A stretch of DNA of 56,856 nt from assembly GCA_036383935.1 (NCBI GenBank), contig DASVNI010000338.1, forward strand, positions 1 to 56,856. Reading direction: 5' to 3'. Source of the DNA: Gemmatimonadaceae bacterium. GTDB lineage: Bacteria; Gemmatimonadota; Gemmatimonadetes; Gemmatimonadales; Gemmatimonadaceae. Within the stretch, counting starts at the first letter, position 1. Every line of letters begins with the position of its first letter. The position numbers were made by a program, and so were the translations under genes. A model generated the notes under the pieces. It saw only the letters and a program-made list of their open reading frames with translations, was not told the DNA's origin and searched no databases. Shown in pieces: positions 46,770-56,856 of the stretch.

Positions 46770-46782
46770 AGGGAAAAGAGAA

Positions 46783-46810
46783 AGCGGGGCGACCCAGAGG
46801 GTCGCCCCGC
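46783..46810 (-). terminator. Rho-independent terminator of the second csp gene
   Basis: agcggggcgacc / ggtcgccccgct (12 bp, 4-nt loop). On the minus strand it is followed by TTCTCTTTTCCC. Confidence 0.75.
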
Positions 46811-46836
46811 TCTCATGCACTTCGAGCTCGATCAGC

Positions 46837-47043
46837 TCAGGTCTTCGACACGTTCTCGGCCGCGGGGCCCTTGGCGCCCTGGACGATGTCGAATTCCACC
46901 GAGTCGCCCTCGGCGAGGGACTTGAAGCCGTTGCCCTGGATCGCGCTGTAGTGCACGAAGCAGTCTTTCTCGCCGCTGTCGGGGGTAATGAAGCCGAAAC
47001 CCTTCGCGTCGTTGAACCACTTCACCTTGCCGGTCGTACGCAT
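46837..47043 (-). CDS. Cold-shock protein (CSD), second copy
   Basis: [65 protein letters not shown]. Confidence 0.93.
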
Positions 47044-47283
47044 ATCCCAACTCCTGAGAAAACTGATTGTCTAGGGAGCGGAACGCGCCGTACCCCGACA
47101 ATAGCCAGTGCGGCGGGCGCACCGGTGTCCCGTCGCGATGAACGACAAACGCCGAGCCCGATGCTGCTGGCTCGGCGAGCGCAAACGTAGCAAGCCCAAA
47201 AAGAACGGTCAATAGTCGGGCAGGGGCCCATCCGCCCCGAGCGGATGGATTGGGTGCGATGTGTCGGGCGGTCAGCGATGCTG

Positions 47284-52350: not shown

Positions 52351-52890
52351 CTACTGGACCGTGATCGTGCCCTTCATGTTCATCGCCGCGTGCGGCGTGC
52401 AGATATAGTCGTACTTGCCAGCCGGGACCTTGGCGAAGGAGACGACGTAGGCCTCGTTCGGCTGCATGATCATCGGGCCGGCGAGCTCGCCCATCTTCTG
52501 GCCGGGCATGTTGGCATCGAGCTGCGCCTTGGCCGCGGCGTCGGTCACGTTCTGGAAGGTGACGTTGTGTGGGCCGCCGGAGACCATGACGAACTTCACC
52601 GCGTCGCCCTGCTTCACGGTGAGGTTCGCGGGCTCGAACTTATAACCCGTGGCGTCACCGATCATCTTGACCTCGTGCGTCTGACCGGTGGCCGGCGCAG
52701 CGGCAGCCGCACCAGCAGCCGGGGCCGCGGCGGGCGCAGCGGCAGCCGCCGCCCCCGTATCAGCCGGGGTCGTCGTTGCAGCGGGCGCCGGCGTAGCCGT
52801 CGCGGTGGTGTCGGCGGCGGGCGTCTTCTCGCCGCCACAGGCGCCGAGGATGGTCGCGCTCGCGAGGAGGGCAATACCGTGGAACCGCAT
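52351..52890 (-). CDS. Type-1 blue copper protein (plastocyanin/pseudoazurin-like) lipoprotein
   Basis: Lipobox LGAC, Ala/Pro/Thr linker. Cupredoxin ligands GPHNV ... YICTPHAAMNM (His, Cys-x2-His-x4-Met). GGAGG lies 9 nt upstream. Confidence 0.88.
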   Translation of the reverse strand: MRFHGIALLASATILGACGGEKTPAADTTATATPAPAATTTPADTGAAAAAAPAAAPAAGAAAAAPATGQTHEVKMIGDATGYKFEPANLTVKQGDAVKFVMVSGGPHNVTFQNVTDAAAKAQLDANMPGQKMGELAGPMIMQPNEAYVVSFAKVPAGKYDYICTPHAAMNMKGTITVQ

Positions 52891-52953
52891 TTCTGAAGGC
52901 CTCCAGTAGGACCTGATCGTGGTGTAAGGCGACGCGGGGGCCCCCGCGTCGTT

Positions 52954-52971
52954 TTGTGAATTTATTCACAA
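52954..52971. promoter_or_regulatory. CRP/FNR-class operator candidate
   Basis: ttgtgaatttattcacaa is a perfect 18-nt palindrome containing TGTGA-N6-TCACA. Its centre is ~72 nt upstream of the cupredoxin ATG. Confidence 0.55.
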
Positions 52972-53084
52972 GTTCCGTAAGCGCAATTCGGCCGATCATT
53001 GCCGTGCGTCGGGAGTGTGCAGGCGGCGTGCATACCCCGCGCCGTCACGTTGACCCGTCCGCGAGTCGCTGTTAGGTTGCCCGC

Positions 53085-53165
53085 ATGTCGATAATTGGCG
53101 TCCACCATCATGCGCATCCTCACCACGGTCAGACGGGCCGGGGCGAGACGCGCATGCGCGGGTAG
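53085..53165 (+). CDS. Histidine operon leader peptide (26 aa)
   Basis: Translated by hand: MSIIGVHHHAHPHHGQTGRGETRMRG*. Six His fall in codons 7-14. An intrinsic terminator lies downstream, ahead of hisG. Confidence 0.8.
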   Translation: MSIIGVHHHAHPHHGQTGRGETRMRG

Positions 53166-53201
53166 GCGAAAGCTCACCCCAACAGCGCCGATCGGCTCGC
53201 G

Positions 53202-53229
53202 GCCCGTCCTGATGGACGGGCTTTTTTTT
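53202..53229 (+). terminator. his attenuator terminator
   Basis: gcccgtcc (53202-09) / ggacgggc (53214-21), TGAT loop, then eight T (53222-29). The 5' arm ggcccgtc can alternatively pair with gacgggcc (53132-39) inside the leader ORF. Confidence 0.85.
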
Positions 53230-53274
53230 CGCCGTACACCAGCCTCCTCTCCCTTCTCGGCCGCCTGGCCACCC

Positions 53275-54138
53275 ATGCTCCGAATCGCACTCCCCAACAA
53301 AGGACGTCTCGCGGACGAAGCTCGCGAACTGTTCACCGACGCCGGTCTCGAGATCCGCGCCGCGGGCCCGCGCGCCCTCACCGCCTCTCTGGGCGGTGAG
53401 TTCCAGGCGCTGTTCGTCCGGGCGCAGGACATCCCCGAATTCGTGGCCGATGGCGCCGCAGACGCCGGGGTGACCGGGGCCGATCTCGTGCGTGAGTCCG
53501 GACGTGCGCTCGAGGAGCTGACGGATCTCACCTTCGGGCGCTGCCGTCTCGCCGTCGCGGCCACCGAGGAAAGCGGGCTCTCGGCGCTCGACGATCTGCG
53601 CTCGGGCACACGGGTGGCGACGGTATTCCCCCGGGTCACGGCGGAATACTTTGCGTCGGTCGGACGACAGGTGGAGATCGTTCCGGTCTCCGGTGCCGCT
53701 GAGATCGCGCCGCACATCGGAATCGCCGACGTGATCGTGGACCTCGTCTCGACCGGGTCCACGTTGCGCGTGAATGGCCTGCGAGAGATCGCGACCGTGC
53801 TGGAATCGAGTGCGCGACTCATTGCCGCGCCGGACGCGCGAGCGGACGTCGCTCGCGGACGGGCGCTGGACGAGCTGGTGGCTGCGCTTCGCAGCGTCCT
53901 CGCTGCGCGCGACAAGCGCTACGTGATGGCAAACGTGCCGCGCGACCGGCTCGACGAAGTGAAGCGCGTCATCCCGGGCCTCAACGGCCCGACGATCATT
54001 GACATCATGAACGGCGGACGATTCGTCGCCGTGCATGCCGTGGTATCTGCCGCGACGATCTATAGAACGATCGCCGACCTGAAGGCCCTCGGGGCCGAGG
54101 GCATTCTGGTCACCCGTATCGAGAGGCTCATGTCGTGA
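53275..54138 (+). CDS. hisG: ATP phosphoribosyltransferase (long form)
   Basis: MLRIALPNKGRL... DLVSTGSTL, plus the C-terminal regulatory domain. 287 aa from ATG 53275. Confidence 0.92.
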   Translation: MLRIALPNKGRLADEARELFTDAGLEIRAAGPRALTASLGGEFQALFVRAQDIPEFVADGAADAGVTGADLVRESGRALEELTDLTFGRCRLAVAATEESGLSALDDLRSGTRVATVFPRVTAEYFASVGRQVEIVPVSGAAEIAPHIGIADVIVDLVSTGSTLRVNGLREIATVLESSARLIAAPDARADVARGRALDELVAALRSVLAARDKRYVMANVPRDRLDEVKRVIPGLNGPTIIDIMNGGRFVAVHAVVSAATIYRTIADLKALGAEGILVTRIERLMS

Positions 54139-55469
54139 GCGCGCAGCGAGCAGCGAGCGGCTCAATGGTGCGGTGGACGGGACGCTGCGACACCCTGACG
54201 GGTGCGGATCGGCGTGCGCTGTTCGATCGAACCGAGGGAATCGACGCGGTGATCGGCGAACGTACGTCGAGCATCATCGCGCGCGTACGCCGCGACGGCG
54301 ACGATGCCCTTCGCGCGCTCGCCGTGGAGCTGGATGGTGTCGAGCTGGATGCGCTGGAAGTTCCGAGAGCACGATGGCGGACGGCGCTCGACAGCCTCCC
54401 CCAGCCGTTGCGACAGGCGCTCGAGCGTTCGGCCGAGAACATCGAGCGGGTCCACCGCGCCTTTCGCCCGGTTGCGCAAGAGACGGAGAGTGAGGCCGGG
54501 GTGGTCGTCGGCCGGCGGCCCGATCCGCTCGGGCGCGTCGGCGTCTACGCGCCCGGGGGACGGGCCGCGTACCCGAGCAGTGTGCTGATGGGTATCGTAC
54601 CGGCGCGCGTGGCCGGCGTTGGTGAGATCGTGCTCTGCTCGCCGCCGTCGCGCGAGACGCGCCTGCCCTCGGATGTCGTCCTCGCCGCGGCCGCTCTCGC
54701 CGGAGCCGATCGCGTCTTCGCGCTGGGCGGCGCGGGCGCGGTCGCAGCGATGGCCTACGGCACGGCCACCGTGCCCCGCGTCGATCGCATCGTGGGGCCA
54801 GGCAATGCGTACGTCGCCGCGGCCAAGCTGCAGGTTTCCAGTGCCGTGGCGATCGATTCGCCTGCCGGTCCGAGCGAGCTCCTCGTCCTGTGCGACGAGA
54901 CTGCCGACGCCGTGCTGGTCGCCCGCGAGATGCTCGCCCAGGCCGAGCATGATCCGCTCGCCGCCGTGGTCGCTGTGACGACGCGCGCGCGCGCGGTCGA
55001 CGACATCCTGTCCGCGCTCGAGACGGGCCTCGCGACGCACCCGCGCGCGGACATCTGTCGCGCAGCGCTGGCAGGGCAGGGCGCCGTCCTCTCCGCCGGC
55101 TCGCTGGCAGACGCCATCGCGTTCGCGAACGAGTACGCGGCAGAGCACCTTCTATTGATCGTCGAGCCACTGGGCGACACACTGGCCGCGCTGCGAAACG
55201 CGGGGACCGTGTTCGTTGGGTCGACAGCCTCGGTCGCATTCGGCGACTACATGACGGGAGCCAACCACGTGCTTCCCACCGGCGGCCTCGCACGCTCGTA
55301 CTCGGGACTCTCGACACTCGACTTCGTGCGCTGGACGACGTACCAGCGCGTGAGCCGGGATGCCGCGGCGCGGCTGGCGGACGATGTCGGCACCTTCGCT
55401 GACGCCGAGGGGCTGCCCGGGCACGCGTTGACGGCGCGCGCGTGGCGCGAGGGAGCGCCGGTGTCATGA
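54135..55469 (+). CDS. hisD: Histidinol dehydrogenase
   Basis: GTGA overlap with the hisG stop. AGPSE, QAEHD, GDY..G.NHVLPT motifs. Confidence 0.92.
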   Translation: MSAQRAASGSMVRWTGRCDTLTGADRRALFDRTEGIDAVIGERTSSIIARVRRDGDDALRALAVELDGVELDALEVPRARWRTALDSLPQPLRQALERSAENIERVHRAFRPVAQETESEAGVVVGRRPDPLGRVGVYAPGGRAAYPSSVLMGIVPARVAGVGEIVLCSPPSRETRLPSDVVLAAAALAGADRVFALGGAGAVAAMAYGTATVPRVDRIVGPGNAYVAAAKLQVSSAVAIDSPAGPSELLVLCDETADAVLVAREMLAQAEHDPLAAVVAVTTRARAVDDILSALETGLATHPRADICRAALAGQGAVLSAGSLADAIAFANEYAAEHLLLIVEPLGDTLAALRNAGTVFVGSTASVAFGDYMTGANHVLPTGGLARSYSGLSTLDFVRWTTYQRVSRDAAARLADDVGTFADAEGLPGHALTARAWREGAPVS

Positions 55470-56569
55470 TCTCTACCGGCGAATTCACGACGCTGGCGCG
55501 CAGCGACGTGCGGGCGCTTCCCCTGTATGCCCCGGACGTCACGGCCTGCGCTGTGGACGTGAGCGACAACGTGAACCTTTGGGGCACCCCACCGGCCGCC
55601 CTTCGCGCACTGACGACGACAGCGATATCCGCGAGCCGGTATCCGTCGGTCTATGCGACGCCGCTCCGCGATGCCGTCCTCCGCTACCTCGATCTTCCCG
55701 CCGACGGCACCATCGACGTGGTGTCGGCGTGCGGCTCGGACGACGTCCTCGACGCGACCATGCGAGCGTTTGGTGAGCCCGGGGACGAGATCGTGTTCGC
55801 GGCGCCGACCTTCGCGATGATTCCGATCTTCGCGCGGTTGAACGGCCTCGTCCCGGTCGCCGTGCCGATGACGTCGGACTACGGCGTCGATCCCCAGGAA
55901 CTGGTCGATCGCCGTGCGAAGATCACGTACCTCTGCACACCGAACAATCCGACGTCGACCGCGCTGTCGCGCGAGACGGTGGAGTACGTCGTCCACAACG
56001 CCGCCGGCCTTGTCGTGATCGATGAGGCGTACGCCGAGTTCGCGCCAGAATCTTTCGTCGGACTCGTCACGACGTCCGAGCGACTCGTCGTGATCCGGAC
56101 GTTTTCCAAGGCGTTCGGGCTCGCCGGACTTCGCGTCGGCTACGGCATCGGCAACACTGGCGTCGTCGAGCCGATCGTACGCGCTCGCGGACCGTACAAG
56201 GTGAACGCGCTCGCCGAGGCCGCCGCCGTCGCCGCACTCGCCGAGGGAGCGGATGGGATCGGGTGGGTCTCCGCGCACGCCAGCCTGGCCGTCGAGAACC
56301 GAACACGATTGGCATCCGAGCTTCGTGCGCTCGGTTTCGTTCCCGCGCCGGCGGCGGGCAACTTCCTCTTCGTGCCCGTCGCTCAAGCGCAGGCGATTGC
56401 CGAGGGAATGAGTCGCCGCGGGGTGCTCGTGCGTGCACTCTCCGATCTGCCGCAGGACATTCCTGCGCTCGCCGTGGCTGGAGGTGAGGCCTTGCGTATC
56501 GGCGTCGGTCCCTGGGACACCATGGAACGCGTGCTGGAAGCCTTCGTGGAGGCACTCGCATGCGTGTGA
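55466..56569 (+). CDS. hisC: Histidinol-phosphate aminotransferase
   Basis: ATGA overlap with the hisD stop. NPNNPT-like CTPNNPTS, DEAYAEF, TFSKAFGLAGLRVGY (PLP Lys). Confidence 0.92.
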   Translation: MISTGEFTTLARSDVRALPLYAPDVTACAVDVSDNVNLWGTPPAALRALTTTAISASRYPSVYATPLRDAVLRYLDLPADGTIDVVSACGSDDVLDATMRAFGEPGDEIVFAAPTFAMIPIFARLNGLVPVAVPMTSDYGVDPQELVDRRAKITYLCTPNNPTSTALSRETVEYVVHNAAGLVVIDEAYAEFAPESFVGLVTTSERLVVIRTFSKAFGLAGLRVGYGIGNTGVVEPIVRARGPYKVNALAEAAAVAALAEGADGIGWVSAHASLAVENRTRLASELRALGFVPAPAAGNFLFVPVAQAQAIAEGMSRRGVLVRALSDLPQDIPALAVAGGEALRIGVGPWDTMERVLEAFVEALACV

Positions 56570-56856
56570 CGATCTTCGATTATGGCGCGGGCAATCTGCA
56601 CTCGCTGGCGAAGGCCATCGAAGCAGGAGGAGTGGAAGTGCGGATCGAAGAGGACCCGACGCTCGCGACCGATGCCGACGCCCTCGTGCTGCCTGGCGTC
56701 GGCGCGTTCGGGGCGGCGGCCGGTCGGCTGGCACCAGGACGCGAGGCGATGCGCGAGGCGATTCTCGGCGGACTGCCGACACTCGGTATCTGCCTGGGGA
56801 TGCAGCTGCTCTTCGAGGGAAGCGATGAAGGGGAGGGAGCGGGACTCGGCGTGATC
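56560..56856 (+). CDS. hisH: Imidazole glycerol phosphate synthase, glutamine amidotransferase subunit (5' partial, runs off the window)
   Basis: Translated by hand from ATG 56560: MRVTIFDYGAGNLHSLAKAIE...LPGVGAFG...GICLGMQLLFE (catalytic Cys). It overlaps the hisC stop and is absent from the ORF track because no stop falls within the window. Confidence 0.88.
   Translation, partial: MRVTIFDYGAGNLHSLAKAIEAGGVEVRIEEDPTLATDADALVLPGVGAFGAAAGRLAPGREAMREAILGGLPTLGICLGMQLLFEGSDEGEGAGLGVI

Follow-up and report, generated by a model that had tools for sequence, protein, structure and literature searches.

Attenuators that respond to histidine have been described in gamma-proteobacteria and, as separate motifs, in three lineages of Firmicutes (PMC9413887; PMC4833913). 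Here, a further leader of this kind is described upstream of hisG in a 56,856-nt stretch of a contig from a Gemmatimonadaceae bacterium (hereafter the window, to which all positions refer), where the leader region was read directly as well as from the list of open reading frames (ORFs). The element is very probably a ribosome-mediated transcription attenuator of an operon beginning with hisG, hisD, hisC and hisH, whose leader peptide is probably translated from a leaderless transcript. Direct support comes from the sequence elements, their conservation, the covariation of a hairpin termed 1:2 and the energetics of folding. The mechanism as such is textbook; the new parts are the sequence family, the phyla that carry it and the predicted leaderless start. 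A search of the literature found no description of such an element in Gemmatimonadota or Myxococcota, although the broad attenuator survey of Lopatovskaya et al. (2010) might mention one.

The closest described system is the enterobacterial hisL leader (RF00514; PF08047), with which the element shares a short His-run ORF directly before hisG, mutually exclusive anti-antiterminator, antiterminator and terminator hairpins, and the logic of ribosome stalling under scarce His-tRNA (PMC9413887). It differs from hisL in its interrupted His run (HHHxHxHH or HHHVHHHH, as opposed to seven consecutive His in hisL), in the absence of a Shine-Dalgarno (SD) sequence, in a predicted promoter that abuts the start codon and in its hosts, which belong to the Gemmatimonadota and Myxococcota. 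The helices of hisL form an A–F series, whereas the element described here has three main helices. In addition, it matches neither RF00514, in sequence or structure, nor Pfam: cmscan of positions 52850–53400 against Rfam 15 at E ≤ 10 did not return RF00514 (His_leader), and hmmscan searches (E ≤ 10) with the peptide of the window and that of a typical relative returned neither PF08047 nor any other Pfam family. At the Rfam gathering thresholds, a scan of the window and five related loci returned nothing at the leader. Nine permissive Rfam matches at E ≤ 10, mostly on the terminator or on the general shape of a leader, were dismissed as chance; they include Burkholderia small RNAs, a CRISPR repeat and Leu_leader (17.4 bits against a gathering score of 50). 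Judged from its sequence, the element works like hisL but is not in the hisL family. The description “enterobacterial-style” in the first-pass annotation, a reading of the sequence alone, is therefore apt for the logic but not for the RNA, which lies outside Rfam His_leader, and the non-proteobacterial context suspected there agrees with a host from the Gemmatimonadaceae.

Three further systems invite comparison. The predicted Firmicutes His attenuators of the Bacillus cereus group, Peptostreptococcaceae and Erysipelotrichales are likewise lineage-specific, lie outside RF00514 and were found by the same type of comparative reasoning, but they occur in other phyla with low GC content and precede other genes (hisZ, transporters; PMC9413887). 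Among Actinobacteria, the polycysteine attenuators of mycobacteria have leader ORFs that are leaderless (bioRxiv 10.1101/834739), and leaderless transcripts of Corynebacterium glutamicum have been listed (PMC3890552). Like these actinobacterial leaders, the present element is predicted to begin its transcript with a short ORF that lacks an SD and senses one amino acid by tandem codons; it differs from them in amino acid, phyla and RNA. C. glutamicum has leaderless leader peptides as well, and the mycobacterial Cys ORFs are reportedly without a classical terminator switch in every case. Finally, the histidine T-box leaders of Firmicutes and Actinobacteria (e.g., C. glutamicum hisDCB) are also cis-acting RNAs before his genes with a terminator switched by tRNA-His charging. 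A T-box, however, binds the tRNA directly and needs no translation, whereas a translated His-codon ORF is predicted here, and neither the permissive nor the gathering-threshold Rfam scans returned a T-box model.

Leader ORF, terminator and alternative pairings

The leader ORF occupies positions 53085–53165 of the plus strand and comprises 26 codons from an ATG to the TAG at 53163–53165, encoding MSIIGVHHHAHPHHGQTGRGETRMRG. Its regulatory run (53103–53126) holds six His in eight consecutive codons (53103–53111, 53115–53117 and 53121–53126) and is the proposed site of ribosome stalling when His-tRNA is scarce; the ORF stands 110 nt before hisG. The first-pass annotation had reported this ORF and its His codons, together with the terminator and the promoter-like element discussed below, and all of them were recovered at the same coordinates. 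In its ORF, the element agrees with a leader-peptide attenuator, with codons for the end product clustered upstream of a biosynthetic operon. GC-rich genomes are full of spurious open frames, which raises the question of a chance ORF beside an ordinary terminator or insulator. Yet only seven windows with at least six His in eight codons exist in the six frames of the 5.33-Mb assembly, and a genome-wide scan for the combined pattern (TTGACN-N16-18-TANNNT, 5–9 nt, ATG or GTG, an ORF of 8–45 codons and a terminator within 130 nt) returned a single site, the window's own his leader. The pairing of His-run ORF and terminator is not chance; an accidental origin, refuted also by conservation in two phyla with covariation, retains a negligible probability.

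The regions upstream of hisG in related genomes were compared for His runs, as had been proposed from the sequence, and the combination of His-run ORF, GACGGG segment and terminator was found at about 90 loci in total. An intact His-rich ORF is present at the same place in 91 loci, with a length of 18–32 codons (median 26) and 4–10 His (median 7). Among these relatives, CAC (360 codons) and CAT (275 codons) interchange freely while the first two codon positions are invariant, which is the pattern of a translated codon. In all relatives, the His run directly abuts GGYC-N-GACGGG, so that its position is fixed. The codons that follow the run read GGC-CNG-ACG-GGN in Gemmatimonadota and, with one extra base, GGC-CCC-GAC-GGG in myxobacteria. 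As the frame of GACGGG thus differs between the two phyla, it is the RNA rather than the peptide that is conserved after the His run.

This shift of frame also bears on the idea that the His-rich ORF encodes a functional small peptide, for instance a metal-binding one, and that the hairpin and T-run merely end the transcript without any sensing of tRNA-His. HHHxHxHH does resemble a metal-binding tag, and the C-terminal GxTGRGDARVHG looks conserved within the genus. On the other hand, the N-terminal residues vary freely, the peptide belongs to no Pfam family, the ORF is single-copy and always directly upstream of hisG, and the conserved nucleotides downstream of the His run, whose reading frame differs between the phyla, covary as RNA pairs. 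A peptide function of this kind is highly improbable.

The intrinsic terminator (3:4) lies on the plus strand at 53201–53229, between the leader ORF and the first gene of the operon, and begins 36 nt past the ORF. Its arms, GGCCCGUCC (53201–53209) and GGACGGGCU (53214–53222), enclose the loop UGAU and form a stem of gcccgtcc (53202–53209) with ggacgggc (53214–53221) extended by the pair G53201–U53222; a run of eight T follows at 53222–53229. The stem folds with −18.4 kcal/mol, a consensus terminator scan also called it, and the last T is 46 nt from the hisG ATG, so that the earlier description of a GC stem and T8 at this distance was borne out by direct reading, scan and fold. For the pair counts, an alignment of 83 leaders was used in which three structures were written out, with partner-slid and shuffled controls. 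Terminator pairs are intact in 99.9% of alignment cells; of its nine pairs, four are invariant and another four vary on both sides. Across the 83 sequences there is hardly any change in the core GCCCGTCC/GGACGGGC, and a GC stem followed by T5–T9 is found in nearly all loci, with a broken T-run in a few relatives (e.g., locus L025).

Hairpin 1:2 (53109–53156, plus strand; −25.0 kcal/mol), the anti-antiterminator and possibly also a pause hairpin, is formed by the His codons themselves; it is absent from the first-pass annotation and is added here. This imperfect hairpin of 18 pairs consists of a 5' strand at 53109–53130, which comprises the second half of the His run and GGYC, a loop at 53131–53135, which holds the first bases of GACGGG, and a 3' strand at 53136–53156. 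The 5' strand of the anti-antiterminator therefore contains the regulatory codons. In its two helices, 88.6% and 87.8% of the alignment cells can pair, and nine pairs have changed on both sides. Taken together, hairpin 1:2 and the terminator are paired in 89.5% of cells, compared with 23–45% when the partner is slid by 1–3 columns, and changes on both sides occur in 13 pairs and 94 cells. The covariation score of the two structures is 0.220 as opposed to 0.135 in shuffled alignments, and none of 500 shuffles scored as high. Covarying columns in hairpin 1:2 include 42–92 (CG 43, UA 18, UG 17) and 44–90 (CG 40, UG 26, UA 10); further ones are 57–78 (CG 52, GU 15, UG 10, UA 3) and 60–75 (CG 59, GC 6, UA 5). 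The window itself is a compensated case, with CAU-GCG-CAU/CGC-AUG-CGC where most relatives have CAC-GUG-CAU/CGC-GUG-CAC.

The predicted antiterminator pairs segment 2 (53128–53146), which contains the conserved GACGGGCC at 53132–53139, with segment 3 (53192–53213), which overlaps the terminator in its 5' arm and loop; both segments lie on the plus strand. At its core, gacgggcc (53132–53139), which begins 6 nt past the last His codon, is the exact reverse complement of ggcccgtc (53201–53208). This complementarity had been pointed out before, but the pairing is far longer than the 8 bp then proposed: the full helix has about 17 bp, takes in the terminator loop and reaches −30.4 kcal/mol, whereas the 8-bp core has −16.2 kcal/mol. 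GACGGGYC pairs with GGCCCGUC in 88.6% of cells, as opposed to 21–49% when slid. On the basis of this conservation, a pairing exclusive with the terminator is predicted.

Such a competition bears on whether control might reside mainly at another level, i.e., in Rho-dependent termination, RNA stability or hisG translation, with an intrinsic terminator that is constitutive or leaky. The lack of an obvious SD at hisG, a small conserved hairpin at 53260–53271 just before its ATG and the few relatives with a broken T-run, such as L025, would be in line with this. However, a strong GC stem with T5–T9 is retained in nearly all loci and the alternative pairing competes specifically for the 5' arm of the terminator, which makes predominant control elsewhere quite improbable.

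Between hairpin 1:2 and the terminator, a small hairpin, GGGUAGGCGAAAGCUCACCC (53160–53179, plus strand), spans the stop codon and appears in the minimum-energy folds. Relatives carry other hairpins at this position (CCGGCA-N4-UGCCGG in many of them), the window's clade having a different one. Since this middle hairpin was aligned too poorly by MAFFT for pair counts, it was treated as a variable spacer.

Predicted leaderless start, folding and mechanism

Upstream of the leader ORF, a −35-like hexamer TTGACC (53050–53055) is followed after 17 nt by a −10-like hexamer TAGGTT (53073–53078), which ends 6 nt (gcccgc) before the ATG; both are on the plus strand. A strict search pattern matches 69 of 91 loci, with TTGAC[CGT] at this place (TTGCCC in two, TTGACA in one), a spacing of 17–18 nt, TAnnnT and a gap of 5–10 nt (mode 7, then 6) to the in-frame ATG. 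Myxobacterial loci show TTGACG, 16–17 nt, TACTCA or TAACCC, 7 nt and GTG or ATG. SD-like tetramers at −16 to −4 were found in only 5 of 91 loci, and the window's own leader has no purine-rich SD. Given the fixed gap between the −10 hexamer and the start codon, transcription is expected to start at or next to the A of the ATG. The promoter geometry and the scarcity of SD sequences are those of a leaderless mRNA, and this is probably where the transcript begins.

The fold of 53079–53232 is more stable than all 200 shuffled sequences (z = −3.15). In the full leader without a ribosome, the termination state (hairpin 1:2 with terminator) reaches −68.4 kcal/mol and the antitermination state −59.0 kcal/mol, so that termination is the default in the unmasked leader. 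When 53085–53130 are masked as by a stalled ribosome, the corresponding values are −50.3 and −46.6 kcal/mol; until the 3' arm of the terminator has been made, the antiterminator is the fold of lowest energy. The same behaviour is seen across the 83 sequences, where unmasked minimum-energy folds contain the terminator in 82 and hairpin 1:2 at least partly in 69, while masking of the His-codon strand with the 3' arm left off yields the antiterminator in 81. Positioned with the A site at any of the last two or three His codons (53115–53126), a ribosome would cover the entire 5' strand of hairpin 1:2, and the fixed position of the His run beside GGYC-N-GACGGG fits stalling there. The comparison of energies that the first-pass annotation had suggested was thereby made (−18.4 kcal/mol for the terminator, −16.2 for the 8-bp antiterminator core and −30.4 for the full antiterminator), and its interpretation as a leader-peptide attenuator is supported by elements conserved in about 90 hisG loci, by a covarying hairpin 1:2 and by the masked folds (81 of 83).

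From these elements we infer a transcription start, translation of the leader and a response to histidine as follows. Transcription would start at or within a base or two of the ATG at 53085, and the leader would be translated from a leaderless transcript. With ample charged tRNA-His, the ribosome would pass the His codons and reach the stop codon at 53163; behind it, 53109–53130 would pair with 53136–53156 to form hairpin 1:2 and sequester GACGGGCC. With GACGGGCC locked, the terminator at 53201–53222 would form together with its T8, and RNA polymerase would halt 46 nt before hisG. When charged tRNA-His is scarce, the ribosome would instead stall on the last His codons and cover the 5' strand of hairpin 1:2, whereupon the freed 53128–53146 could pair with 53192–53213 once these are transcribed, ahead of the synthesis of the 3' arm of the terminator. 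The antiterminator would then block the terminator and transcription would proceed into hisG.

Several observations weigh against an attenuator that operates in this way from a leaderless start. Covariation of the antiterminator was looked for in the 83-sequence alignment and none was found, both strands being almost invariant, which is however expected of a strand obliged to pair with two partners. In masked full-length equilibrium folds, the terminator wins in 66 of 83 sequences and is about 4 kcal/mol better in the window, so that antitermination has to be kinetic and co-transcriptional, an outcome that is usual for attenuators. Stalling of the ribosome on the first His codons would still allow the upper part of hairpin 1:2 to fold. 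With regard to the start, a strict sigma-70 scan called no promoter here, TTGACC-17-TAGGTT not satisfying the TATAAT criteria of that scan. When leaderless genes were sought across the genome, only 55 strict motifs were obtained, too small a sample for their slight excess of starts at 6–7 nt to carry weight.

A rival reading has the same attenuator on a longer mRNA, transcribed from an upstream promoter and with SD-independent translation of the leader, in which case TTGACC-17-TAGGTT would be something else. The silent promoter scan, the other conserved signals of the divergent intergenic region (a TGTGA-N6-TCACA box and a hairpin) and a Thr-rich leader candidate of the same genome about 75 nt past its promoter-like motif would agree with such a transcript. 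Against it stand the −35/−10 pair at a fixed 5–10 nt from the start in 69 of 91 loci, with the same geometry in myxobacteria, the SD-like word in only 5 of 91 loci and the lack of sequence conservation upstream of the −35 hexamer. A longer transcript is accordingly considered unlikely, and the leaderless attenuator is the reading followed below.

Distribution, descent and genomic context

Within the genus, every one of the 23 genomes with a hisG gene has the His-run ORF upstream of it, as do two genomes of a second family with the same type of hisG. The wider survey covered the 80 best hisG loci from a collection of 185,579 species; among these, the design was found in essentially all Gemmatimonadota, in every locus from Myxococcaceae and Archangiaceae (Myxococcus xanthus, Corallococcus, Pyxidicoccus, Hyalangium) and in one metagenome-assembled genome (MAG) of ‘Eisenbacteria.’ A near-invariant core, GACGGG ... 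GCCCGUCC-loop-GGACGGGC, characterizes the element. A covariance model built from the 83-leader alignment (153 positions, 27 pairs) gives its highest score, 122.6 bits, to the window's own element. This model matched 75 of 301 sampled Gemmatimonadota genomes with one match each (two in a few), most of them from the window's family or one other family of its order and a few from other families of the class, and 60 of 251 sampled Myxococcota genomes, again with one match each and nearly all in genomes of 9–13 Mb. In both phyla, the matches are always at hisG.

When 86 HisG proteins were placed in a maximum-likelihood tree, those from myxobacteria (17 sequences) grouped in a single clade (91/91), nested in a larger clade (96/85) that is otherwise made up of Gemmatimonadota and the one ‘Eisenbacteria’ MAG, with other Gemmatimonadaceae branching deeper. 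This arrangement suggests a single transfer of hisG together with its leader between the two phyla, the direction of which is unsure since the branch that carries the root is longer than 8 changes per column. We give slightly better than even credence to a single uncatalogued family of leaderless His-attenuator RNAs that accompanies one lineage of long-form hisG and passed between Gemmatimonadota and the ancestor of Myxococcaceae and Archangiaceae as a unit of gene plus regulator.

A weaker His-run ORF was found in two further genomes of the same order (loci L027 and L031), whose hisG is only 36–38% identical to that of the window. The promoter-abutting His-run ORFs of these loci, MRSGLRHHVHHHHPLTGRG and MTRTSSHRHHHGHSVHGG, are not accompanied by the GCCCGTCC terminator, and the leader may be older than this type of hisG or may have arisen twice.

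The hisG gene (53275–54138, plus strand) encodes a long-form ATP phosphoribosyltransferase of 287 residues (TIGR00070, 2.4e-63; TIGR03455, 9.3e-28) that carries the C-terminal regulatory domain according to its profile match. An ORF of 347 residues from a TTG at 53095 was rejected as an artefact in this place, since the HisG of every relative begins with MLRIALPNKG at the position of 53275; the first-pass annotation had rightly called this 60-codon extension spurious. On the same strand follow hisD (54135–55469), hisC (55442–56569) and hisH (56560 to the window end at 56856), for which the ORF list and profile searches confirm the gene order noted earlier. Adjacent genes overlap by 4 nt (hisG/hisD, 54135–54138), 28 nt (hisD/hisC, 55442–55469) and 10 nt (hisC/hisH, 56560–56569), which suggests translational coupling along the operon. 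For the annotation, the start of hisG should be placed at 53275, preceded by an unannotated leader gene of 26 codons and a regulatory RNA. hisG has no evident SD, and the hairpin 4 nt before its ATG (GGCC-GCCU-GGCC, 53260–53271), which the closest relatives keep with varied loops (e.g., aGGCCgcttGGCC and aGGCCgtcaGGCC), may act in its translation.

On the other side of the leader, a divergent cupredoxin gene (52351–52890, minus strand) is a conserved neighbour in 66 loci. Between the two, a perfect CRP/FNR-type palindrome, TGTGAATTTATTCACA (52955–52970), forms an AT-rich island; in 49 of 91 loci, all from Gemmatimonadota, the same TGTGA-N6-TCACA box precedes the leader start by 88–191 nt. Seven such boxes occur in the genome compared with 1.2 expected, four of which read TTGTGA-N6-TCACAA. 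The box was not counted towards the attenuator because its target is more likely the cupredoxin gene, given the conservation of this divergent neighbour. The palindrome is probably the operator for cupredoxin, and an alternative role at the his promoter is conceivable. A GC-rich hairpin at 52923–52958 (plus strand), with 11–16 pairs followed by TTTTGTG, abuts the box and was called terminator-like; no gene on the plus strand lies upstream of it to be terminated. Elsewhere in the window, a match to the Rfam cspA thermoregulator (46781–47122, minus strand; 78.8 bits against a gathering score of 78) overlies a cold-shock protein gene of 68 residues (46837–47043) and is ordinary.

The same genome holds two further candidates for leader-peptide attenuation. 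On contig C466 (2486–2572, minus strand), an ORF encoding MISYSRYTYTRMTMTTTNPFGGGGALSV with six Thr in ten codons is followed by a GC stem and T6 and, about 90 nt later, by an aspartate kinase gene (NF004938, 3.4e-98). TTGACA-17-TAGTCT and a perfect hairpin lie about 75 nt upstream of it, and at this distance from its promoter-like motif the Thr leader candidate does not look leaderless. On contig C205 (8477–8554, minus strand), an ORF encoding MCPSISNCCCLAKRQHTDRGRDVSS has three consecutive Cys codons followed by a terminator, and downstream lie an OsmC-family gene and cysN, which encodes the large subunit of sulfate adenylyltransferase (TIGR02034, 3.1e-91). This candidate recalls the polycysteine leader ORFs of mycobacteria.

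The element provides a probable means of controlling histidine synthesis in the Gemmatimonadota, which are widespread in soil but in which experimental genetics has hardly begun. Its presence in Myxococcus xanthus ties this control to a host that is open to bench work; among laboratory strains, M. xanthus DK1622 and Gemmatimonas aurantiaca T-27 both belong to the carriers. As the seed of a new Rfam family, the covariance model could improve the annotation of several hundred genomes. What is gained is wider coverage and a good example of a leader peptide with a predicted leaderless start, rather than a new principle. If the predicted start is correct, translation would begin at base +1 and so couple the first ribosome to the polymerase at once, and the family would offer a clean natural system for studies of attenuation without an SD.

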